NCBI GenBank assembly: GCA_965237805.1
Contig: OZ250153.1
Coordinates: forward strand, 1,152,001-1,216,000
DNA: 64,000 bases
DNA from: Gammaproteobacteria bacterium
GTDB taxonomy: Bacteria; Pseudomonadota; Gammaproteobacteria; JABABF01
Direction: 5' to 3'
Part shown: positions 51,514-61,493 of the stretch, piece by piece
Position numbering within the stretch: position 1 is the first letter of the stretch
Layout of the letters: every line of letters begins with the position of its first letter
The notes under the pieces: generated by a model
Database searches by the model: none
The model's input: the letters and a program-made list of their open reading frames with translations, nothing else
Told to the model about the DNA's origin: nothing
Position numbers and translations under genes: made by a program

Positions 51514-52569
51514 TTAGGCTGATCCGTAGCGCTTCCTCCAATAGCGCATCAAGCGGTTTAGTAGCCGAATTGGTAGTGTTTTAATTGGTACTATTCCAAG
51601 ATGTACCCACCACCACTTCAGTATCATCATGCGTCCCGCCCATGTTTGGGTGATCGGTGGGGGGGTGCCCCGGTCTATGCGCTCCACGATTTGATCTATG
51701 CGCTCTAATATCGCTTCAGGAGAATGCTCATAAGAAAACAATTTGGAGTCTGGCAATACGGCTGGCTGTTCAGTGTATTGGCGGTAGAGTTCAGGGTTGC
51801 CCTCCACCTCCATGACATGGTCAATCACGGCATCCAGATCGTCGTAGTCATGGCAGTTGATAAAGCGTGCCGGGTTGAAATACTCGCTGATTCGCGTGCT
51901 GCCGTAGTAAATTGGGATACTGCCGGCCATCAATGCTTGCGGCAATTTTTCCGCCATGAAAAAAGGAGCACTTATGGTTTCAAAACATATGCTGAATCGG
52001 TAGTGTTTTAAAAATTCCATTTTGTTATTAAAATCAGGACAATTGGGATCATCTGGTGATGGCATATTGTTCAGTACTTGGCCGGGAGAATCGACATGTT
52101 TTCGCGCCGTCAGCGCACGGAAAAAATTGGCGCGCAATTCGGCTGTGCTAACCCCCTGATTTCTATGAAAGAAATTGCAGAAGCGGTCTTTGGGATGAGC
52201 AGTCAATTCATCGCAATAACTAGACTCTCCGCGCAACCATGCCGGAAAAGGCTCGTCCCACACATATTTCCAGTAGTGGAGGTGTGTAGCATCCGTAGGC
52301 TCGGGGCTAACAGCATAGTCACATAAAAACCCGCGGTTGCGATACCACAGCGGATGTTCAACTCCTAACCAACACTTGATGCAATCGTAGCGCGAATGCT
52401 TCCGTCCCCAGCTATCTGAACAAAACAGCAGTTCAGGTTCTTGGCTATGCTCCAAGTCGTATTTCGTGCTGAGGACATCAAAAAATCCCTTATGTAATAC
52501 CGCTGGCGCATCTTTGGCTTCGTGAGGCCAGAAGTCTGTCAAGGCAATTTTCAGTTTTCGTTTCGTCAT
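51514..52569 (-). CDS. GT10 alpha-1,3-fucosyltransferase-like protein, copy 1
   Basis: FCNF...R..FF..L...K.VDSPG...NN...K.EF.K.YRFSICFE......EKL..A..AG.IPIY.G...FNP..FIN. Confidence 0.88.
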   Translation of the reverse strand: MTKRKLKIALTDFWPHEAKDAPAVLHKGFFDVLSTKYDLEHSQEPELLFCSDSWGRKHSRYDCIKCWLGVEHPLWYRNRGFLCDYAVSPEPTDATHLHYWKYVWDEPFPAWLRGESSYCDELTAHPKDRFCNFFHRNQGVSTAELRANFFRALTARKHVDSPGQVLNNMPSPDDPNCPDFNNKMEFLKHYRFSICFETISAPFFMAEKLPQALMAGSIPIYYGSTRISEYFNPARFINCHDYDDLDAVIDHVMEVEGNPELYRQYTEQPAVLPDSKLFSYEHSPEAILERIDQIVERIDRGTPPPITQTWAGRMMILKWWWVHLGIVPIKTLPIRLLNRLMRYWRKRYGSA

Positions 52570-52756
52570 GATATTAGCGATCTTTTTGCCACAGCATTGG
52601 ATGGTTTTGGCAATGATCAGATCTGAGGGGGTTCAATCTCCTGATCCACCCCCACTGGATTTGCACTCTTTGCACTCGTGGCTGAGTACTTGCCAGTATA
52701 CTCAATTAGTGTGATGTTGACAGCAGGATGATTGCTGCTCGCAACGCGTCGCCTCC

Positions 52757-53818
52757 TTAGGCTGATCCGTAGCGCTTCCTCCAATAGCGCATAAAGCGGT
52801 TTAGTAGCCGCATTGGTAGTGTTCTAATTGGTTTTCTTCTAAGATATCCCCACCACCACCTCAGTATCATCATGCGTCCCGCCCATGTTTGGGTGATCGG
52901 TGGGGGGGTACCCCGGTCTATGCGCTCTACGATTTGATCTATGCGCTCTAATATCGCTTCAGGAGAATGCTCATAAGAAAACAATTTGGAATCTGGCAAT
53001 ACGGCTGGCTGTTCAGTGTATTGGCGGTAGAGTTCAGGGTTATCCTCCACCTCCATGACATGGTCAATCACGGCATCTAGATCGTCGTAGTCATGGCAGT
53101 TGATAAAGCGTGCCGGGTTGAAATATTCACTGATTCTCGTACTGCCGTAGTAAATTGGGATACTGCCGACCATCAATGCTTGCGGCAATTTTTCTCCCGT
53201 GTAAAAAGGAGCGCTTATGGTATCAAAACATATGCTGAATCGGTAGTGCTTTATAAATTCCATTTTGTTCTTCCAATGGAAACAATTATGATAATCTAGT
53301 GGTGGCATATTGTTTAGTAATCTGCCGGGAGAATCGACATGTTTTCGCGCCGTCAGCGCACGGAAAAAATTGGCGCGTAATTTGGCTGTGGTAACCCCCG
53401 GCATTTTCTGACAGAAATTGCAGAAGCGGTCTTTGGGATGAGCAGTCAATTCATCGCAATAACTAGACTCCCCGCGCAACCATGCCGGGAAAGGCTCGTC
53501 CCACACATGTTTCCAGTAGTGGAGGTGTGTAGCATCCGTAGGCTCGGGGCTAAAAGCATAGTCACATAAAAAGCCGTGATTTCGGTAAACACCCGGGGAT
53601 TCCCATCCCAACCAACACTTGATGCAATTGTAGTGCTGGTGTTCCATGAGGTATACGGAGTGATCTGAACAAAACAGCAGTTCAGGTTCTTGGCTGCGCT
53701 CCAAGTCGTATTTCGTGCTGAGGACATCAAAAAATCCCTTATGTAATACCGCTGGCGCATCTTGGGCTTCGTGAGGCCAGAAGTCTGTCAAGGCAATTTT
53801 GAGTTTTCTTTTGGCCAT
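52757..53818 (-). CDS. GT10 alpha-1,3-fucosyltransferase-like protein, copy 2
   Basis: Same motifs as copy 1; FDTISAPFYTGEK variant. Confidence 0.88.
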   Translation of the reverse strand: MAKRKLKIALTDFWPHEAQDAPAVLHKGFFDVLSTKYDLERSQEPELLFCSDHSVYLMEHQHYNCIKCWLGWESPGVYRNHGFLCDYAFSPEPTDATHLHYWKHVWDEPFPAWLRGESSYCDELTAHPKDRFCNFCQKMPGVTTAKLRANFFRALTARKHVDSPGRLLNNMPPLDYHNCFHWKNKMEFIKHYRFSICFDTISAPFYTGEKLPQALMVGSIPIYYGSTRISEYFNPARFINCHDYDDLDAVIDHVMEVEDNPELYRQYTEQPAVLPDSKLFSYEHSPEAILERIDQIVERIDRGTPPPITQTWAGRMMILRWWWGYLRRKPIRTLPMRLLNRFMRYWRKRYGSA

Positions 53819-54012
53819 GATATTGGGGATCTTTTCGCCACAGCATTGGGCGGTTTTGGCAATGATCAGATCTGAGGGGGTTCAATCTCCTGATCTACTC
53901 CCACTGGATTTGCACTCTTTGCACTCGTGGCTGAACGCCTGCCAGTGTACTACAATTAGAGTGACGTTGATCAGCAGGATGATCGCTGCCCGCAATGTGT
54001 CACCCCTTAGGC

Positions 54013-55056
54013 TTAGCAGTAGTGCTTCCTCCAATAGCGCATACAGCGGCTTGGTAGTGTTCTAATTGGTTCTCTTCTAAGATATCCCCACCACCACTTC
54101 AGTATCATCATGCGTCCCGCCCATGTTTGGGTGATCGGTGGGGGGGTGCCCCGGTCTATGCGCTCTACGATTTGATCTATGCGATCTAATATCGCTTCAG
54201 GAGAATGCTCATAAGAAAACAATTTGGAATCTGGCAATACGGCTGGCTGTTCAGTGTATTGGCGGTAGAGTTCAGGGTTATCCTCCACCTCCATGACATG
54301 GTCAATCACGGCATCTAGATCGTCGTAGTCATGGCAGTTGATAAAGCGTGCCGGGTTGAAATACTCGCTGATTCGCGTACTGCCGTAGTAAATTGGGATA
54401 CTGCCGACCATCAATGCTTGCGGCAATTTTTCTCCCGTGTAAAAAGGAGCGCTTATGGTATCAAAACATATGCTGAATCGGTAGTGCTTTATAAATTCCA
54501 TTTTGTTCTTCCAATTGACAGAATTATAATTATCTAGTGGTGGCATATTGTTTAGTAATCTGCCGGGAGAATCGACATGTTTTCGCGCCGTCAGCGCACG
54601 GAAAAAATTGGCGCGTAATTTGGCTGTGCTAACCCCCGGCATTTTCTGACAGAAATTGCAGAAGCGGTCTTTGGGATGAGCAGTCAATTCATCGCAATAA
54701 CTAGACTCCCCGCGCAACCATGCCGGGAAAGGCTCGTCCCACACAAATTTCCAGTAGTGGAGGTGTGTAGCATCAGTAGGCTCGGGGCTAACAGCATAGT
54801 CACATAAATATCCGTGATTTCGGTAAACACCCGGAGATTCACAGCCCAACCAACACTTAATGCAATTGTATCTCTTGTGATCCATTTGGTACACGGAGCT
54901 ATCTGAACAAAACAGTAGTTCTGGTTCTTGGCTATGCTCCAAGTCGTATTTCGTGCTGAGGACATCAAAAAATCCCTTGTGGAATACCGCCGGCGCATCT
55001 TGGGCTTCGTGATGCCAGAAGTCTGTCAAGGCAATTTTCAGTTTTCGTTTCGTCAT
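54013..55056 (-). CDS. GT10 alpha-1,3-fucosyltransferase-like protein, copy 3
   Basis: Same motifs as copy 1; FDTISAPFYTGEK variant. Confidence 0.88.
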   Translation of the reverse strand: MTKRKLKIALTDFWHHEAQDAPAVFHKGFFDVLSTKYDLEHSQEPELLFCSDSSVYQMDHKRYNCIKCWLGCESPGVYRNHGYLCDYAVSPEPTDATHLHYWKFVWDEPFPAWLRGESSYCDELTAHPKDRFCNFCQKMPGVSTAKLRANFFRALTARKHVDSPGRLLNNMPPLDNYNSVNWKNKMEFIKHYRFSICFDTISAPFYTGEKLPQALMVGSIPIYYGSTRISEYFNPARFINCHDYDDLDAVIDHVMEVEDNPELYRQYTEQPAVLPDSKLFSYEHSPEAILDRIDQIVERIDRGTPPPITQTWAGRMMILKWWWGYLRREPIRTLPSRCMRYWRKHYC

Positions 55057-55249
55057 GATATTAGCGATCTTTTCGACACAGCATTGGGCGGTTTTGGCAA
55101 TGATCTAATCTGAGGGAGCTCAGTCCCCCGACCCGCCCTCACTGGATTTTCACTTTTTGCATTCGTGGCTGAGTCCTTGCCAGTATACCCAATGAGTGTG
55201 ATGTTGACCAGCAGGATGATTGCTGCTCGCAACGTGTCACCCCTTAGGC

Positions 55250-56284
55250 TTAGCAGTAGCGATTTCTCCAATAGTGTATACAGCGCTTTAGTAGCCGAAT
55301 TGGTAGTGTTTTAAAATATCCCCACCACCACTTCAGTATCATCATGCGTCCCGCCCATGTTTGGGTGATCGGTGGGGGGATGCCCCGGTCTATGCGCTCT
55401 ACGATTTGATCTATGCGCTCTAATATCGCTTCAGGAGAATGCTCATAAGAAAACAATTTAGAGTCTGGCAATACGGCTGGCTGTTCAGTGTATTGGCGGT
55501 AGAGTTCAGGGTTGCCCTCCACCTCCATGACATGGTCAATCACGGCATCTAGATCGTCGTAGTCATGGCAGTTGATAATGCGTGCCGGGTTGAAATATTC
55601 ACTGATTTGCGTACAGCCGTAGTAAATTGGGATACTGCCGGCCATCAATGCTTGCGGCAATTTTTCTGCTATGAAAAAAGGAGCGCTTATGGTTTCAAAA
55701 CATATGCTGAATCGGTAGTGCTTTAAAAATTCCATTTTGTTATTCAAATCGGGACAATTGGGATCATCTGGTGATGGCATATTGTTTAGTATTTTGCCGG
55801 GAGAATCGACATGTTTTCGCGCCGTCAGCGTGCGGAAAAAATTAGCGCGCAGTTTGGGTGTGTAATATCCCACGCTGGACTGAAAGAAATTGCAGAAGCG
55901 GTCTTTGGGATGAGCAGTCAATTCATCGCAATAACTAGACTCTCCGCGCAACCATGCCGGGAAAGGCTCGTCCCACACATATCTCCAGTAGTGGAGGTGT
56001 GTAGCATCAGTAGGCTCGGGGCTAAAAGCATAGTCACATAAAAATCCGTAGTTGCGATACGACAGCGGGGGTTCAGCTCCCAACCAACACTTGATGCAAT
56101 CGTAGCGCCAATGCTTCCGGCGAATGGCATCTGAACAAAATAGCAGTTCAGGTTCTTGGCTATGCTCCAAGTCATATTTCGTGCTGAGGACATCAAAAAA
56201 TCCCTTGTGTAATACCACTGGCGCATCTTTGGCTTCGTGAGGCCAGAAGTCTGTCAAGGCAATTTTGAGTTTTCTTTTAGCCAT
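55250..56284 (-). CDS. GT10 alpha-1,3-fucosyltransferase-like protein, copy 4
   Basis: Same motifs as copy 1; FETISAPFFIAEK variant. Confidence 0.88.
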   Translation of the reverse strand: MAKRKLKIALTDFWPHEAKDAPVVLHKGFFDVLSTKYDLEHSQEPELLFCSDAIRRKHWRYDCIKCWLGAEPPLSYRNYGFLCDYAFSPEPTDATHLHYWRYVWDEPFPAWLRGESSYCDELTAHPKDRFCNFFQSSVGYYTPKLRANFFRTLTARKHVDSPGKILNNMPSPDDPNCPDLNNKMEFLKHYRFSICFETISAPFFIAEKLPQALMAGSIPIYYGCTQISEYFNPARIINCHDYDDLDAVIDHVMEVEGNPELYRQYTEQPAVLPDSKLFSYEHSPEAILERIDQIVERIDRGIPPPITQTWAGRMMILKWWWGYFKTLPIRLLKRCIHYWRNRYC

Positions 56285-56472
56285 GATATTGGTGATCTTT
56301 TCGCCACAGCATTGGGCGGTTTTGGCAATGATCAGATCTGAGGGGGTTCAATCTCCAGATCTGTCCCCACTGGATTTGCACTCTTTGCACTCGTGGCGAG
56401 TACTTGCCAGTGTACTGCTATTGGTGTGATGTTGACCAGTAGGATGATTGCTGCTCGCAACGTGTCGCCTCC

Positions 56473-57534
56473 TTAGGCTGATCCGTAGCGCTTCCTCCAA
56501 TAGCGCATACAGCGGTTTAGTAGCCGAATTGGTAGTTTTCTAATTGGTTTAAAATATCCCCACCACCACTTCAGTATCATCATGCGTCCCGCCCATGTTT
56601 GGGTGATCGGTGGGGGGGTGCCCCGGTCTATGCGCTCTACGATTTGGTCTATGCGCTCTAATATCGCTTCAGGAGAATGCTCATAAGAAAACAATTTAGA
56701 GTCTGGCAATACGGCTGGCTGTTCAGTGTATTGGCGGTAGAGTTCAGGGTTATCCTCCACCTCCATGACATGGTCAATCACGGCATCTAGATCGTCGTAG
56801 TCATGGCAGTTGATAATGCGTGCCGGGTTGAAATATTGACTGATTTGCGTACAGCCGTAGTAAATTGGGATACTGCCGACCATCAATGCTTGCGGCAATT
56901 TTTCTGCCATGAAAAAAGGAGCGCTTATGGTTTCAAAACATATGCTGAATCGGTAGTGCTTTATAAATTCCATTTTGTTCTTCCAATCAGGACAATTGGG
57001 GTCATCTGGTGATGGCATATTGTTCAGTATTCTGCCGGGCGAATCGACATGTTTTCGCGCTGTCAGCGCACGGAAAAAATTGGCGCGCAATTTGGCTGTG
57101 GTAGACCCCGGATGTCCCTGAAAGAAATTGCAGAAACGGTCTTTGGGATGAGCAGTCAATTCATCGCAATAACTAGACTCCCCGCGCAACCATGCCGGGA
57201 AAGGCTCGTCCCATACATATTTCCAGTAGTGGTAGTGGAGGTGTGTGGCATCCGTAGGCTCGGGGCTAAAAGCATAGTCACATAAAAATCCGTAGTTGAG
57301 ATACGACAGCGGGGGTTCAACTCCCAACCAACACTTGATGCAATTGTAGCTCTGGTGTTCCATGAGTATTACGGAGTGATCTGAACAAAACAGCAGTTCA
57401 GGTTCTTGGCTATGTTCCAAGTCGTATTTTGTGCTAAGGACATCAAAAAATCCCTTATGTAATGCTATCGGCGCATCTTTGGCTTTGTGAGGCCAGAAGT
57501 CTGTCAAGGCAATTTTGAGTTTTCGTTTCGTCAT
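56473..57534 (-). CDS. GT10 alpha-1,3-fucosyltransferase-like protein, copy 5
   Basis: Same motifs as copy 1; FETISAPFFMAEK variant. Confidence 0.88.
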   Translation of the reverse strand: MTKRKLKIALTDFWPHKAKDAPIALHKGFFDVLSTKYDLEHSQEPELLFCSDHSVILMEHQSYNCIKCWLGVEPPLSYLNYGFLCDYAFSPEPTDATHLHYHYWKYVWDEPFPAWLRGESSYCDELTAHPKDRFCNFFQGHPGSTTAKLRANFFRALTARKHVDSPGRILNNMPSPDDPNCPDWKNKMEFIKHYRFSICFETISAPFFMAEKLPQALMVGSIPIYYGCTQISQYFNPARIINCHDYDDLDAVIDHVMEVEDNPELYRQYTEQPAVLPDSKLFSYEHSPEAILERIDQIVERIDRGTPPPITQTWAGRMMILKWWWGYFKPIRKLPIRLLNRCMRYWRKRYGSA

Positions 57535-58189: not shown

Positions 58190-58828
58190 ATGAGTGGTGT
58201 GCGAGAGCTCGTATTGGCCAGCGGCAACGCTGGCAAGCTGCGTGAGCTGGGTGCTCTGCTCGAACCGTTGGGTTGGCAGCTGGTGCCCCAAGCGGAGCTC
58301 GGGGTGGCACTTGTCGAGGAGACGGGCGTTGATTTCGAAGCCAATGCGCTCATCAAGGCGCGTCACGCGGCGTGTGTCACCGGCCTGCCTGCGCTGGCCG
58401 ACGATTCTGGTCTGGAGGTGGCGGCATTGGATGGTGCGCCGGGGGTGCGTTCGGCGCGCTATGCTGGTGGGTGCGCAGATGCTGCGGCCAATAACCGCAA
58501 ATTGTTGGCTGCGCTAGATGGCCTGCCACCAGCGCGGCGCGGGGCCTGTTTCCGCTGTGCCATCGCCTTGGTGCGCAGCGCCGACGATGCCCAGCCCCTG
58601 CTCGCCCAAGGGCGCTGGGACGGTCGCATCCTAGAGCGGCCACAGGGTGGGGGTGGCTTTGGCTATGATCCGCTGTTCGCGCCCGTCGGTGAGCTGTGCA
58701 GTGCCGCCGAGCTACCCTTTGAGCAAAAACAGCGGCGCAGCCATCGCGGCCAAGCACTGCGTGCGCTGTTGGCGCAGCTCCGCGCCGAGTACGGTGGGCG
58801 CGCCGAGGTGGCGGGTCTCGACACATGA
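58190..58828 (+). CDS. rdgB: dITP/XTP pyrophosphatase
   Basis: LASGNAGKLRE, EETG, NALIKA, ADDSGL, GFGYDPLF, SHRGQA. Confidence 0.95.
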   Translation: MSGVRELVLASGNAGKLRELGALLEPLGWQLVPQAELGVALVEETGVDFEANALIKARHAACVTGLPALADDSGLEVAALDGAPGVRSARYAGGCADAAANNRKLLAALDGLPPARRGACFRCAIALVRSADDAQPLLAQGRWDGRILERPQGGGGFGYDPLFAPVGELCSAAELPFEQKQRRSHRGQALRALLAQLRAEYGGRAEVAGLDT

Positions 58829-59988
58829 GCGCCACGCTGTTTCCGGCACCACAGCCCATAGCGCCGCCGCCGCTGTCCTTGTATGTCCATATTCCTTGGT
58901 GTGAATCCAAATGTCCGTACTGTGATTTCAACTCCCACACCATGGGCGGTGCGCTACCGGAGGACGACTATGTGGCGGCACTGCTCGCCGACCTAGAGGA
59001 GCAATTGCCCCGTGTGGCCGGGCGTTCACTGTGCTCGGTATTCATCGGTGGCGGTACGCCGAGTCTTTTCTCCGCCCACGCCATTGGTGCCCTGCTTGAG
59101 GGCATTGCACGGTGCCTGCCTTTCGCGCCGGAGTTGGAAATTACGCTGGAGGCCAATCCGGCCAGTGCCGAACAGCGGCGCTTCGCCGACTTCCGCGCAG
59201 CTGGTGTCAACCGCTTGTCCTTAGGTATTCAGAGCTTGGACGATACCGCGCTGGCGGCGTTGGGACGACGCCACGATGCCGCGCAGGCACGTGCGGCGGT
59301 GGCTGCCGCCAGTGCGGCCGGTTTCCAGCGGCTGAACTTGGATCTGATGCACGGCCTGCCGGGCCAGTCAGCCAGCGCTGCCCTCGATTCGCTACGCGAG
59401 GCGTTGGCGATGGCGACCGAGCACCTCTCTTGGTACCAGTTGACGCTGGAGCCCGGCACACCATTCCATCGCCGCCCGCCACCGCTACCCGGTGACGATG
59501 AGATCGCCGCTGTGCAAGAGCGGGGGGAGGCGCTGTTGGTTGCTGCCGGTTTGCTGCGCTACGAGATATCCGCTTTTGCCAGACCCGGTGGCGAAGCGCG
59601 CCATAATCTCAATTATTGGCACTTCGGTGACTACCTCGGTATCGGTGCTGGCGCACACGGCAAGCATTCTGACAGCGGCTTTGTGCGCCGTAGCGAAAGG
59701 CCGCCCCGCCCCGCCGATTATCTGCGCCGCCAAGCGGGTCGCGAGTGGGTGCCGCCCGCCGCCGAGTTGCCGCTGGAATACCTGATGAATGCACTGCGTC
59801 TGAGCGGCGGTGTACCCGCCGCTCAGTTCGCCGAGCGCACTGGCCTGCCCGTGGCCTGCATCGCCTCGTCGCTAGCTCAAGCGCGCGACGATGGCCTACT
59901 CGACCCAGACCCACAGCGCTTGGCTCCCACCGCCTTCGGCCAGAGCCATCTCAACGAGCTGTTGAGTCGCTTCCTACCGCTAGAATAG
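58825..59988 (+). CDS. hemW: Radical SAM heme chaperone HemW
   Basis: [44 protein letters not shown]. Confidence 0.93.
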
Positions 59989-59995
59989 ACAAATT

Positions 59996-60069
59996 GCGCC
60001 CGTAGCTCAGTTGGATAGAGTGTCGGCCTCCGAAGCCGAAGGTCACAGGTTCGAATCCTGTCGGGCGCG
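59996..60069 (+). tRNA. argX: tRNA-Arg(CCG); CCA not encoded
   Basis: Acceptor GCGCCCG/CGGGCGC+G; D arm GCTC-AGTTGGATA-GAGT; anticodon arm TCGGC-CT CCG AA-GCCGA; T arm ACAGG-TTCGAAT-CCTGT. Confidence 0.93.
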
Positions 60070-60572
60070 TTGGGAGTAGGGAGCGCAGCTCAGTTGGATA
60101 GAGTGTCGGCCTCCGCAGCCGAAGGTCACAGCTTCGAATCCTGTCGGGCGCGTTGGGAGTAGAGAGCGCAGCATCAGTTGGATAGAGTGTCGGCCCCCGC
60201 AGCCGAAGGTCCCAGCTTCGAATCCTGTCGGGCGCGTTGGGAGTAGGGAGCGCAGCATCAGTTGGATAGAGTGTCGGCCTCCGCAGCCGAAGGTCCCAGC
60301 TTCGAATCCTGTCGGGCGCGTTGGGAGTAGAGAGCGCAGCATCAGTTGGATAGAGTGTCGGCCTCCGCAGCCGAAGGTCCCAGCTTCGAATCCTGTCGGG
60401 CGCGTTGGGAGTAGAGAGCGCAGCATCAGTTGGATAGAGTGTTGGCCTCCGCAGCCGAAGGTCCCAGCTTCGAATCCTGTCGGGCGCGTTGGGAGTAGGG
60501 AGCGCAGCATCAGTTGGATAGAGTGTCGGCCTCCGCAGCCGAAGGTCGCAGCTTCGAATCCTGTCGGGCGCG
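60070..60572 (+). repeat. Six tandem degenerate tRNA-Arg-derived units (83 bp, then 5 x 84 bp)
   Basis: Units start TTGGGAGTAG at 60070, 60153, 60237, 60321, 60405 and 60489 and end CCTGTCGGGCGCG. Confidence 0.95.
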
Positions 60573-60605
60573 TTGGATCGACTAAGCGCAGCTGACAGTA
60601 GGGTC

Positions 60606-61493
60606 TCAGGGGTGCGTCAGTGCTTGGAAGTCCCCGATCATGTGTTTGAGGCCAACCATCAACGGGGTTTGTGCACGCCAATCGAGCAGTTCCAGTGCGC
60701 GCGATGGGTCGCCGTAGAAGTGCGAAGCATCGAAGCTGCGTTGTGGGGCCTCGACGGCCTTTGCCTTGGAATTGGTCAACTCGATTGCCATATCGGCCAA
60801 GTATCCCAGTGTGGTCGGTACGCCGGTCACCAGCTGGATGGGCGGTGGCAGATCGCCACCATCAAGCAAGTCGACCAGCGTGATCAAGCCTTGTGTCACA
60901 TCGTCGATATACACGAAGTCGAAAGTATGGCCTGCACCCTCGATCTGCAAGTTTGCGCCCTGCAATGCTGCGCACACAAAAGCTGGTACCACGCGGTCAG
61001 GGTGATCCGCCACGCTGCCGTAGACATTGGACAGCCGAATCACTGCCGTGCGCAGGCCAGCTGCGCACGCTTCTTGCGCCAAGTGTTCGCCAGCCACTTT
61101 GCTGTGGCCGTAGACATTGATGGGCCGCAAAGGCGTATCCTCGGTGACGGGCATCTTGTCGGGCTGTCCGTAGACTTCTCGGCTACTCGCGATAATCGCC
61201 CAAGAGCAACTGGTCGCCGCCTGCGCCGCCTGCAGCACATTGCGGGTGCCTTCGACATTAGTCGTGTGGCACTCTTCAGGTCGTTGTTCGCCCCATACCA
61301 CCCTTGAGACCGCACCCAAATGCACCACGCCACGGCAAGCTGCGATGGCGTCTGCCACCGCCGCACGATCGCATATATCATCGCCCTCGCTGAGATCAAA
61401 GGCGCGCACTTCCACGTTGCGCTTGCCCAGCTGCTGGCTCAGCGCGGCGCCGATCAGCCCCCTTGCGCCGGTGATGAGAATCGGGTTACTCAA
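60606..61493 (-). CDS. NAD-dependent nucleotide-sugar epimerase/dehydratase
   Basis: [40 protein letters not shown]. Confidence 0.88.

Follow-up and report, generated by a model that had tools for sequence, protein, structure and literature searches.

A tandem array of altered tRNA-Arg(CCG) copies next to its parent gene in a gammaproteobacterial genome

The array and its surroundings

We analysed a 64,000-nt stretch of DNA, hereafter the window (G000:C1:1152001-1216000), from a gammaproteobacterial genome of 1.73 Mb (G000; single contig, 61.6% G+C, 41 tRNA genes). Between a hemW-like gene and a convergent epimerase gene, the window contains a gene for tRNA-Arg(CCG) which is directly followed by a tandem array of six near-complete, altered copies of the same tRNA (Table 1). 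The array matches the structural definition of a minisatellite, i.e. units of high identity arranged head to tail: Tandem Repeats Finder (TRF) reported one array at 60007-60576, with a period of 84 nt, 6.8 copies, 97% matches and a score of 1063. The original prediction, made from the letters of the window, had described an intact tRNA-Arg(CCG) 7 bp past the hemW stop and, behind it, six units of 83-84 bp in head-to-tail order plus a vestige. Both parts of this description held, the former by ARAGORN, Rfam and the list of open reading frames (ORFs), the latter by TRF and the unit register given below. tRNA-Arg(CCG) was the single tRNA called by ARAGORN in the 64-kb window (at 59995-60070). It is also a single-copy gene, as ARAGORN found no second one among the 41 tRNA genes of the genome, and no other tRNA of the genome decodes CGG codons.

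In the register used here, the tRNA and its spacer occupy positions 59996-60082 and the six units start at 60083, 60166, 60250, 60334, 60418 and 60502. Their lengths are 83, 84, 84, 84, 84 and 84 nt (60083-60585), each unit consisting of a 70- or 71-nt body and a 13-nt spacer. The body of every unit corresponds to tRNA positions 9-73 preceded by GCGC. Two substitutions are shared by all six units, as had been predicted: A37C, and G53C, which turns position 53-61 into C.C. An extra A in the D stem, located between positions 11 and 12, was likewise found in units 2-6. Position 49 carries A49C in units 2-5, which breaks pair 49-65, and A49G in unit 6, which gives a wobble. Private changes are represented by U33C in unit 2 and C28U in unit 5. 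The latter yields a U.G pair and is the sole change in the anticodon stem, which remains 5/5 paired in all six units, just as the original prediction had it. A20, C35 and G36, which are relevant to recognition by arginyl-tRNA synthetase (ArgRS), are kept in the units. Units 3 and 4 are identical, leaving five distinct unit sequences.

The earlier description of the units was thus right in the main, but it missed the changes at position 49, the U33C substitution of unit 2 and the odd last spacer. Its statement that the 5' acceptor strand is replaced and U8 mutated to C represents one valid notation; a 4-nt gap (positions 5-8) is equally valid. The gap notation leaves GCGC able to pair with positions 69-72, and Rfam aligns unit 1 in this way. 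As for the spacers, those following the tRNA and units 1-5 carry G, A, G, A, A and G, respectively, at their variable position. The last spacer, TTGGATCGACTAA, is 13 nt long like the other six (TTGGGAGTAGRGA) and differs from them at 7/13 positions. An 8-nt vestige, GCGCAGCT, is located at 60586-60593, and the epimerase stop codon is reached after 12 further bases.

Table 1. Features of the tRNA-Arg(CCG) locus (positions within the window)
Feature	Position	Strand	Remarks
hemW-like radical-SAM gene	58825..59988	+	387 aa; Pfam Radical_SAM 4.3e-22, HemN_C 3.1e-09
TAGAAT, -10-like hexamer	59981..59986	+	9 nt 5' of tRNA; possible tRNA promoter element
Intact tRNA-Arg(CCG)	59996..60069	+	no encoded CCA; Rfam 73.2 bits; ARAGORN
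Antisense open frame through array	60043..60681	-	212 aa; judged spurious
First 13-nt spacer, TTGGGAGTAGGGA	60070..60082	+	also found, with one variable position (G/A), after units 1-5
Unit 1, 83 nt	60083..60165	+	tRNA positions 9-73 behind GCGC; A37C, G53C; least changed copy
Units 2-5, 4 x 84 nt	60166..60501	+	extra D-stem A, A37C, A49C, G53C
Unit 6 body	60502..60572	+	extra A, A37C, A49G, G53C
Probable ancestral tRNA 3' flank, 33 nt	60573..60605	+	spacer TTGGATCGACTAA, vestige AGCGCAGCT (60585-60593), AGTAGGG (60597-60603)
Convergent NAD-dependent epimerase/dehydratase gene	60606..61493	-	295 aa; Pfam Epimerase 1.8e-42

Read-level contigs support the array as a real DNA feature, while its copy number of six is that given by the assembly only. 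Of four sequencing runs compared through contigs, two, both from one sample, contained parts of the stretch. Their contigs, which a different assembler had produced, included the junction between the tRNA and unit 1 (60012-60116) with 0 differences, unit-specific stretches at 60090-60139, 60213-60256 and 60479-60531, and the junction between unit 6 and the flank (60549-61200). No contig of these two runs spanned the array, the contigs breaking inside it.

According to Pfam, the genes around the array are housekeeping genes. The hexamer preceding the tRNA has a counterpart in the only congener available for comparison (G001, see below), where the CTAGAATAG motif is found at the identical distance of 9 nt (L004 1981-1986; tRNA from 1996); a consensus promoter scan gave no call at the hexamer in the window. 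In the congener, about 97 nt separate the hemW stop from the tRNA (L004 1880-1995). This stretch is missing in the window (59960-59995), where the hemW-like ORF extends to a stop overlapping the conserved CTAGAATAG motif just 5' of the tRNA. The antisense frame running through the array passes the array ends by just 40 and 53 nt. It matched no Pfam family, and 0 relatives of 116-371 aa were found for it among 8000 scored candidates from a collection of 5.8 billion protein clusters.

Predicted folding and transcription of the units

The unit RNAs are not predicted to fold as tRNAs. With the Rfam tRNA model (RF00005, gathering threshold 29 bits), unit 1 scored 35.5 bits and passed, unit 6 scored 21.2 bits and fell below the threshold, and units 2-5 gave no match at E<=10 in the region or at E<=1 genome-wide. 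The original prediction had expected tRNA finders to call one real tRNA plus pseudogenes; one real tRNA was indeed called, but ARAGORN made no pseudogene call on the units and recognized 0/6 of them. No Rfam family besides tRNA exceeded its threshold in 59500-61200. The units also depart from the canonical cloverleaf in several respects. At most 4/7 acceptor pairs can form and U8 is missing in 6/6 units, the D stem is bulged in 5/6, G53-C61 is lost in 6/6 and pair 49-65 in 4/6, and the T stem of units 2-5 retains 3/5 pairs. The 5-bp anticodon stem is the only element kept throughout the units.

Folding energies gave a similar picture. The parent tRNA-Arg(CCG) forms 21/21 cloverleaf pairs, and its cloverleaf costs only 1.3 kcal/mol over the minimum free energy (MFE) structure (-29.2 vs -30.5 kcal/mol); its fold has z = -2.35, with 4/200 shuffles being as good. 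The five distinct unit bodies are predicted to adopt non-cloverleaf shapes of -21.8 to -24.1 kcal/mol, with z from -0.14 to +0.23 and 75-110 of 200 shuffles being as good. Imposing the cloverleaf on the units costs 6.8-12.7 kcal/mol over the MFE structure (-16.3 to -9.1 vs -23.1 to -21.8 kcal/mol). Unit 1 lies at the lower end of this cost (-16.3 vs -23.1 kcal/mol), and the values for units 2-5 are -9.1 to -11.2 vs -21.8 to -22.6 kcal/mol. For a 621-nt transcript covering the entire region, the predicted energy is -224.1 kcal/mol, which is worse than 20/20 shuffles (mean -248.4, z = +3.98).

The site scan detected no terminator-like site after the tRNA or after the array, and the consensus scan detected no promoter-like site within the units. 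Lacking such a site behind the tRNA, transcription is likely to read through and, judging from the DNA, the array is probably transcribed from the tRNA promoter. The acceptor/T-arm stack is what RNase P and the CCA-adding enzyme depend on, and cells dispose of defective tRNA precursors through polyadenylation-dependent decay. Given this background, the unit RNAs would be expected to be unstable; with their predicted non-tRNA folds, the unit transcripts would be ordinary substrates for RNA turnover.

Distribution, related duplications and a model of origin

Next to the source genome, 40 relatives were included in the DNA search (41 genomes altogether). Matches to the unit region exceeding tRNA size were found in the source genome only; elsewhere, matches were tRNA-sized or represented pieces of the hemW and epimerase genes. 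Four relatives (G009, G010, G036 and G039) had matches extending about 35 nt past a tRNA. The two of these loci that were inspected (L020, L023) contained tRNA-Arg(UCU) with tRNA-His directly behind it, two real adjacent genes. The only congener, G001, possesses a syntenic locus with a hemW-like ORF (637-1899), tRNA-Arg(CCG) (1996-2069) and a convergent epimerase gene (2107-2994). Its tRNA-Arg(CCG) differs from that of the window at one base, and the epimerase proteins share 59% identity. TRF found no repeat at this locus. The tRNA is separated from the epimerase stop by 37 nt in the congener and the end of unit 6 by 33 nt in the window; as the arrangement is otherwise conserved, the array behaves as a 503-nt insertion (60070-60572). 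When the comparison was extended to the four closest relatives (G001-G004, comprising the congener, two other genera of the family and the nearest other family), TRF detected no tRNA-derived repeat at 4/4 tRNA-Arg(CCG) loci. An unrelated 20-nt x2 repeat was observed 5' of the tRNA-Arg(CCG) gene in G003.

Wider scans relied on exact patterns or near-length matches, by which diverged arrays are missed, and records near the source genome were possibly outside their reach; their outcome should thus be read as "not found" instead of "absent". Two patterns were used: i) the tRNA 3' end followed by its D arm within 5-30 nt, and ii) the unit-specific mutated body. Among 185,579 species representatives (one genome per species), the two exact patterns had 0 hits, and 0 hits were also obtained with the junction pattern in viral contigs. 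A pattern scan of metagenomes returned three loci, none of them an array: in two, tRNA-Arg(CCG) was followed by unrelated sequence, and the third was a 3' fragment resembling an attachment (att) site. The latter (contig L035, 1470-1522) is a lone tRNA-Arg(CCG) fragment beginning in the anticodon stem, with no full tRNA called, and has the look of a classic att site that an integrative element leaves behind.

Tandem duplication is common in the source genome. TRF yielded 146 rows genome-wide, among which the tRNA-Arg array ranked ninth by score. Merged arrays with a score of at least 150 numbered 24, and 19 of them have periods divisible by three, most in long open frames; these are probably coding repeats. 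Particular arrays observed include 74 copies of a 282-bp unit (20.8 kb, G000:C1:1598132-1618917), two 126-bp arrays of 15.4 and 12 copies (G000:C1:1695563-1700027) and 16.3 copies of a 26-bp unit, a period not divisible by three (G000:C1:1669957-1670379). Within the window, five consecutive GT10 paralogues (51514-57534, minus strand, ~350 aa, 81-91% aa identity) with a fucosyltransferase C-terminal domain represent a tandem amplification 2.5 kb upstream of hemW.

Partial copies were linked to 4/41 tRNA genes (Arg, Thr, Leu and Phe). The search of other tRNA genes, suggested by the original prediction, thus revealed three partial duplications, but no comparable multi-unit array among them. For tRNA-Thr(UGU), a 144-bp x2.0 tandem duplication of 98% identity (G000:C1:1370583-1370876, L038) starts inside the gene, so that the final 50 nt of the tRNA are present twice; the partial copy scores 33.1 bits on the tRNA model. 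For tRNA-Leu(CAG), an exact 21-nt copy of the 3' end is located 88 nt downstream (G000:C1:417518-417538, L039); this could be either an att-like site or a small duplication. The sole tRNA-Phe(GAA) (G000:C1:446144-446254, L037 245-355) has a 36-nt copy of the 5' half of the gene immediately upstream. Here, the upstream copy has a perfect acceptor strand (GCCCAGG), whereas the 5' strand of the tRNA body (GGCCTG) no longer pairs properly. The body scores 47.4 bits in Rfam with acceptor gaps, and its T stem contains U.C, a mismatch, at a site occupied by U.G in the congener and in another genus. The tRNA-Phe locus is thus either genuinely odd or the product of a local error in the assembly. The congener possesses single intact tRNA-Phe and tRNA-Thr(UGU) genes at matching loci, free of duplications, so that all three tRNA-linked duplications checked (Arg, Phe and Thr) are absent from it. 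The tRNA genes seem over-represented among the non-coding duplications of the genome, and the three further genes with partial duplications, those of Thr and Phe being absent in the congener, hint at a tRNA-linked duplication process. A weak match to the tRNA model with an unusual length of 108 nt was also noted at G000:C1:1712244-1712351 (25.7 bits, below the cut-off).

Two candidate causes of the duplications gained no support. Loss of MutS, MutL or RNase HI does not account for them, as all three are present and contain no internal stops. As for replication-transcription conflict, the GC skew indicates a replication origin at about 1.085 Mb and a terminus at about 0.215 Mb. By this map, 3/4 duplication-bearing tRNA genes are oriented head-on, but so are 17/41 of all tRNA genes, which gives no clear signal.

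Every internal junction of the array reads TTGG-G-AGTAGGG-AGCGCAGCT, after which the tRNA body begins. Both AGTAGGG and AGCGCAGCT occur once each in the 33-nt terminal flank, in opposite order, and AGCT is common to the junction and tRNA positions 9-12. Because both junction motifs are present in the terminal flank, the junction fits a microhomology or template-switch duplication; the chance of the shared 7-mer was estimated by shuffling at ~0.03. Furthermore, the changes are nested, with unit 1 nearest to the tRNA, the inner units homogenised and the edge units odd (unit 6 at position 49), a pattern that fits unequal crossover. Scanning for other origins of the spacer gave no shared k-mer of 6 or more beyond the tRNA body. 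Derivation of the spacer from the tRNA 5' leader (GAATAGACA vs GAGTAGRGA, 7/9 matches) was also considered and rejected, the similarity being within chance.

A model of the origin of the array can be proposed. It assumes that the terminal 33 nt represent the ancestral 3' flank, similar in length to the 37 nt of the congener. A template-switch or microhomology-mediated duplication would have copied tRNA positions 9-73 together with 4 nt of the trailer, a process of the fork stalling and template switching/microhomology-mediated break-induced replication (FoSTeS/MMBIR) type. The copy would have been joined to its parent through a junction patched from the flank motifs AGTAGGG and AGCGCAGCT, with AGCT serving as microhomology. 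According to the model, the first copy had neither a 5' acceptor strand nor U8 from birth; it would then have acquired A37C and G53C, and a sub-lineage would have gained the D-stem A and changed position 49. Finally, unequal crossover between unit bodies could have multiplied the internal unit with its spacer to six copies, leaving the outermost spacer and the vestige single.

Interpretation and comparison with known systems

Our best reading is that the array has no dedicated function. With a probability of roughly 70%, we regard it as a young, lineage-specific, neutral minisatellite composed of non-functional tRNA-Arg(CCG) copies that were dead on arrival. Among the possibilities raised by the original prediction, neutral expansion is favoured because i) the congener has no array, tRNA folding is lost and stems are broken without compensation, and ii) the anticodon loop is altered in 6/6 units and no nuclease or defence gene lies nearby. 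The roles suggested at that time as decoy, sponge or source of small RNAs and tRNA fragments gained no support. Lack of the array in relatives had been named as a mark of a neutral variable number tandem repeat (VNTR), and this is what we observed at the syntenic locus of the congener.

Several observations weigh against this interpretation. The anticodon stem is paired in 6/6 units, with A20, C35 and G36 retained. Since the units differ among themselves by two private body substitutions and position 49 only, the variation is too small to separate constraint from youth. All five kinds of change strike functionally critical positions, and they could reflect selection for disabling, by which a defective tRNA would be stopped from interfering, rather than drift; the two are inseparable here. 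As for the origin, internal and terminal spacers differ at 7/13 positions, so that a plain one-step duplication is insufficient, and the template-switch account depends on a shared 7-mer whose chance is ~0.03. The array's own tRNA-Arg(CCG) is co-directional with replication, and conflict is not an evident cause. The congener is distant, as shown by the 59% identity of the epimerases, and thus provides only a rough age for the array; nor can a function in the array-bearing species be judged from a relative that lacks it. The stretch was found in two runs of one sample only, and no RNA run was listed for it.

It is unlikely, judging from the DNA, that the units form a functional RNA array, co-transcribed with the tRNA and releasing tRNA-derived RNAs or anticodon hairpins that would act as decoys, sponges or an RttR-like regulator. 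The lack of a terminator-like site between tRNA and array, which makes read-through likely, and the retained anticodon stem and ArgRS-relevant bases would suit such a role. There are also precedents: in the accessible text of the sources, distal repeats of the E. coli tyrT operon yield the RttR RNA (PMC3318445; bioRxiv 10.1101/2024.07.17.603846), and a role outside translation has been reported for a pseudo-tRNA of Bacillus cereus (PMC3399842). A decoy, however, would be expected to combine a stable fold with an anticodon loop identical to that of its target. No stable or tRNA-like fold is predicted for the units, and although the anticodon stem itself is kept in 6/6 units, the loop is altered in all of them (A37C, plus U33C in unit 2). 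A decoy would also be expected to be conserved or linked to nuclease, toxin or defence genes. The array is conserved neither in the congener nor in any relative searched, and a Pfam scan, which was confined to 17 ORFs of 180 aa or longer at 43.7-63.8 kb, revealed no nuclease, toxin or defence family. Moreover, the literature covered, which leaves out most subscription journals, contained no description of a bacterial tRNA gene adjoined by an array of its own disabled copies.

A more specific scenario, which we consider quite unlikely, is that the array is read through and its abundant anticodon-arm RNAs titrate ArgRS, a modification enzyme or an anticodon nuclease. The array would then be a newborn RttR-like RNA. 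In a broader sense, the tRNA genes of this lineage might be hotspots of template-switch duplication. If true, such tRNA-linked hotspots would illustrate the way in which bacteria gain genes for small RNAs derived from tRNAs.

A role in cis appears very unlikely. The array could be a buffer that keeps the strongly transcribed tRNA away from the convergent epimerase gene, or could provide extra processing or pause sites that aid 3' maturation or termination of the tRNA transcript. Consistent with this, the array has widened the gap between the convergent units from 33 to 536 nt (37 nt in the congener), and no terminator-like site was detected in either gap (in the window, by the site scan). However, the congener manages with its 37 nt, the units contain no structural signal, any sequence would serve as a buffer, and nothing points to selection.

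It is highly improbable that the array is an assembly artefact or that its copy number is wrong. No read-level contig spans it, the two runs are possibly the assembly's own data, and the same assembly contains the implausible-looking sole tRNA-Phe gene. Nevertheless, the contigs of the independent assembler carry both junctions and unit-specific stretches, and five distinct unit sequences, if the variants are real, exclude the collapse of a true array of one or two units. Finally, the units can hardly be scars of repeated site-specific integration and excision: while tRNA-Arg(CCG) does serve as an att site elsewhere, as the lone fragment in L035 illustrates, the units copy 65/74 tRNA positions and are separated by 13 nt without any intervening element, no integrase is found among the neighbours and no viral contig matches.

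As a neutral minisatellite, the array has little importance alone, but it shows that a bacterial tRNA gene can seed an array of near-full-length dead copies. As the copies are probably co-transcribed with the only tRNA decoding CGG, the locus also offers a natural setting in which to see how a cell copes with defective tRNA-like transcript in six-fold excess. In addition, it provides a warning for annotation, as unit 1 passes the Rfam tRNA threshold.

Several known systems can be compared with the array. Copies left by att duplication are single, usually comprise 3' parts of the tRNA and are separated from the gene by the integrated element. What they share with the present array is a partial direct copy of a tRNA downstream of its gene; here, there are six near-complete copies with 13-nt spacers, no element, housekeeping neighbours and 0 viral-contig matches. 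In the tandem duplication/random loss of animal mitochondria, tandem duplication of a tRNA gene likewise yields an additional copy, which decays next to the functional gene and leaves a pseudogene. Those cases, however, concern an organelle and usually one or two copies, whereas the present one involves a bacterial chromosome and six homogenised copies truncated at birth. A high local density of tRNA-like sequence is also typical of tRNA array units, defined in the accessible text of the source as at least 20 tRNA genes of varied isotypes at a density of at least two per kb (PMC4758250). The 64-kb window contains one tRNA gene and six dead copies, which falls outside this definition.

Bacterial VNTRs and minisatellites share with the array the head-to-tail arrangement of units (83-84 bp), the 97% identity, the more divergent edges and the occurrence in an array-rich genome. 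They differ in that the present unit copies an adjacent essential RNA gene. A VNTR is defined by variation in copy number between strains, and the present array is known from one sample.

Among described systems, the tyrT-tyrV locus of E. coli K-12 comes closest to the array. Its distal repeats (178 bp x 3.1 copies, 95% identity) cover the annotated rttR and tpr and overlap the last 19 nt of tyrV. As far as the accessible text of the sources goes, the repeats are transcribed with the tRNA, one unit giving the RttR RNA (PMC3318445, citing Bosl and Kersten 1991), and RttR is said to be involved in processing of the tyrT transcript and perhaps in the stringent response (bioRxiv 10.1101/2024.07.17.603846). 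In both systems, the 3' end of a tRNA gene is directly adjoined by tandem repeats that contain sequence from the 3' part of the tRNA. Unlike the E. coli system, the present array is absent from the congener and known here from DNA alone, has no tpr-like ORF with relatives and no Rfam link to the E. coli repeat. The tRNA-derived share of the unit is also much larger, amounting to about 65 of 83-84 nt compared with 19/178 nt in E. coli. The array resembles starting material from which an RNA of the RttR type could evolve.

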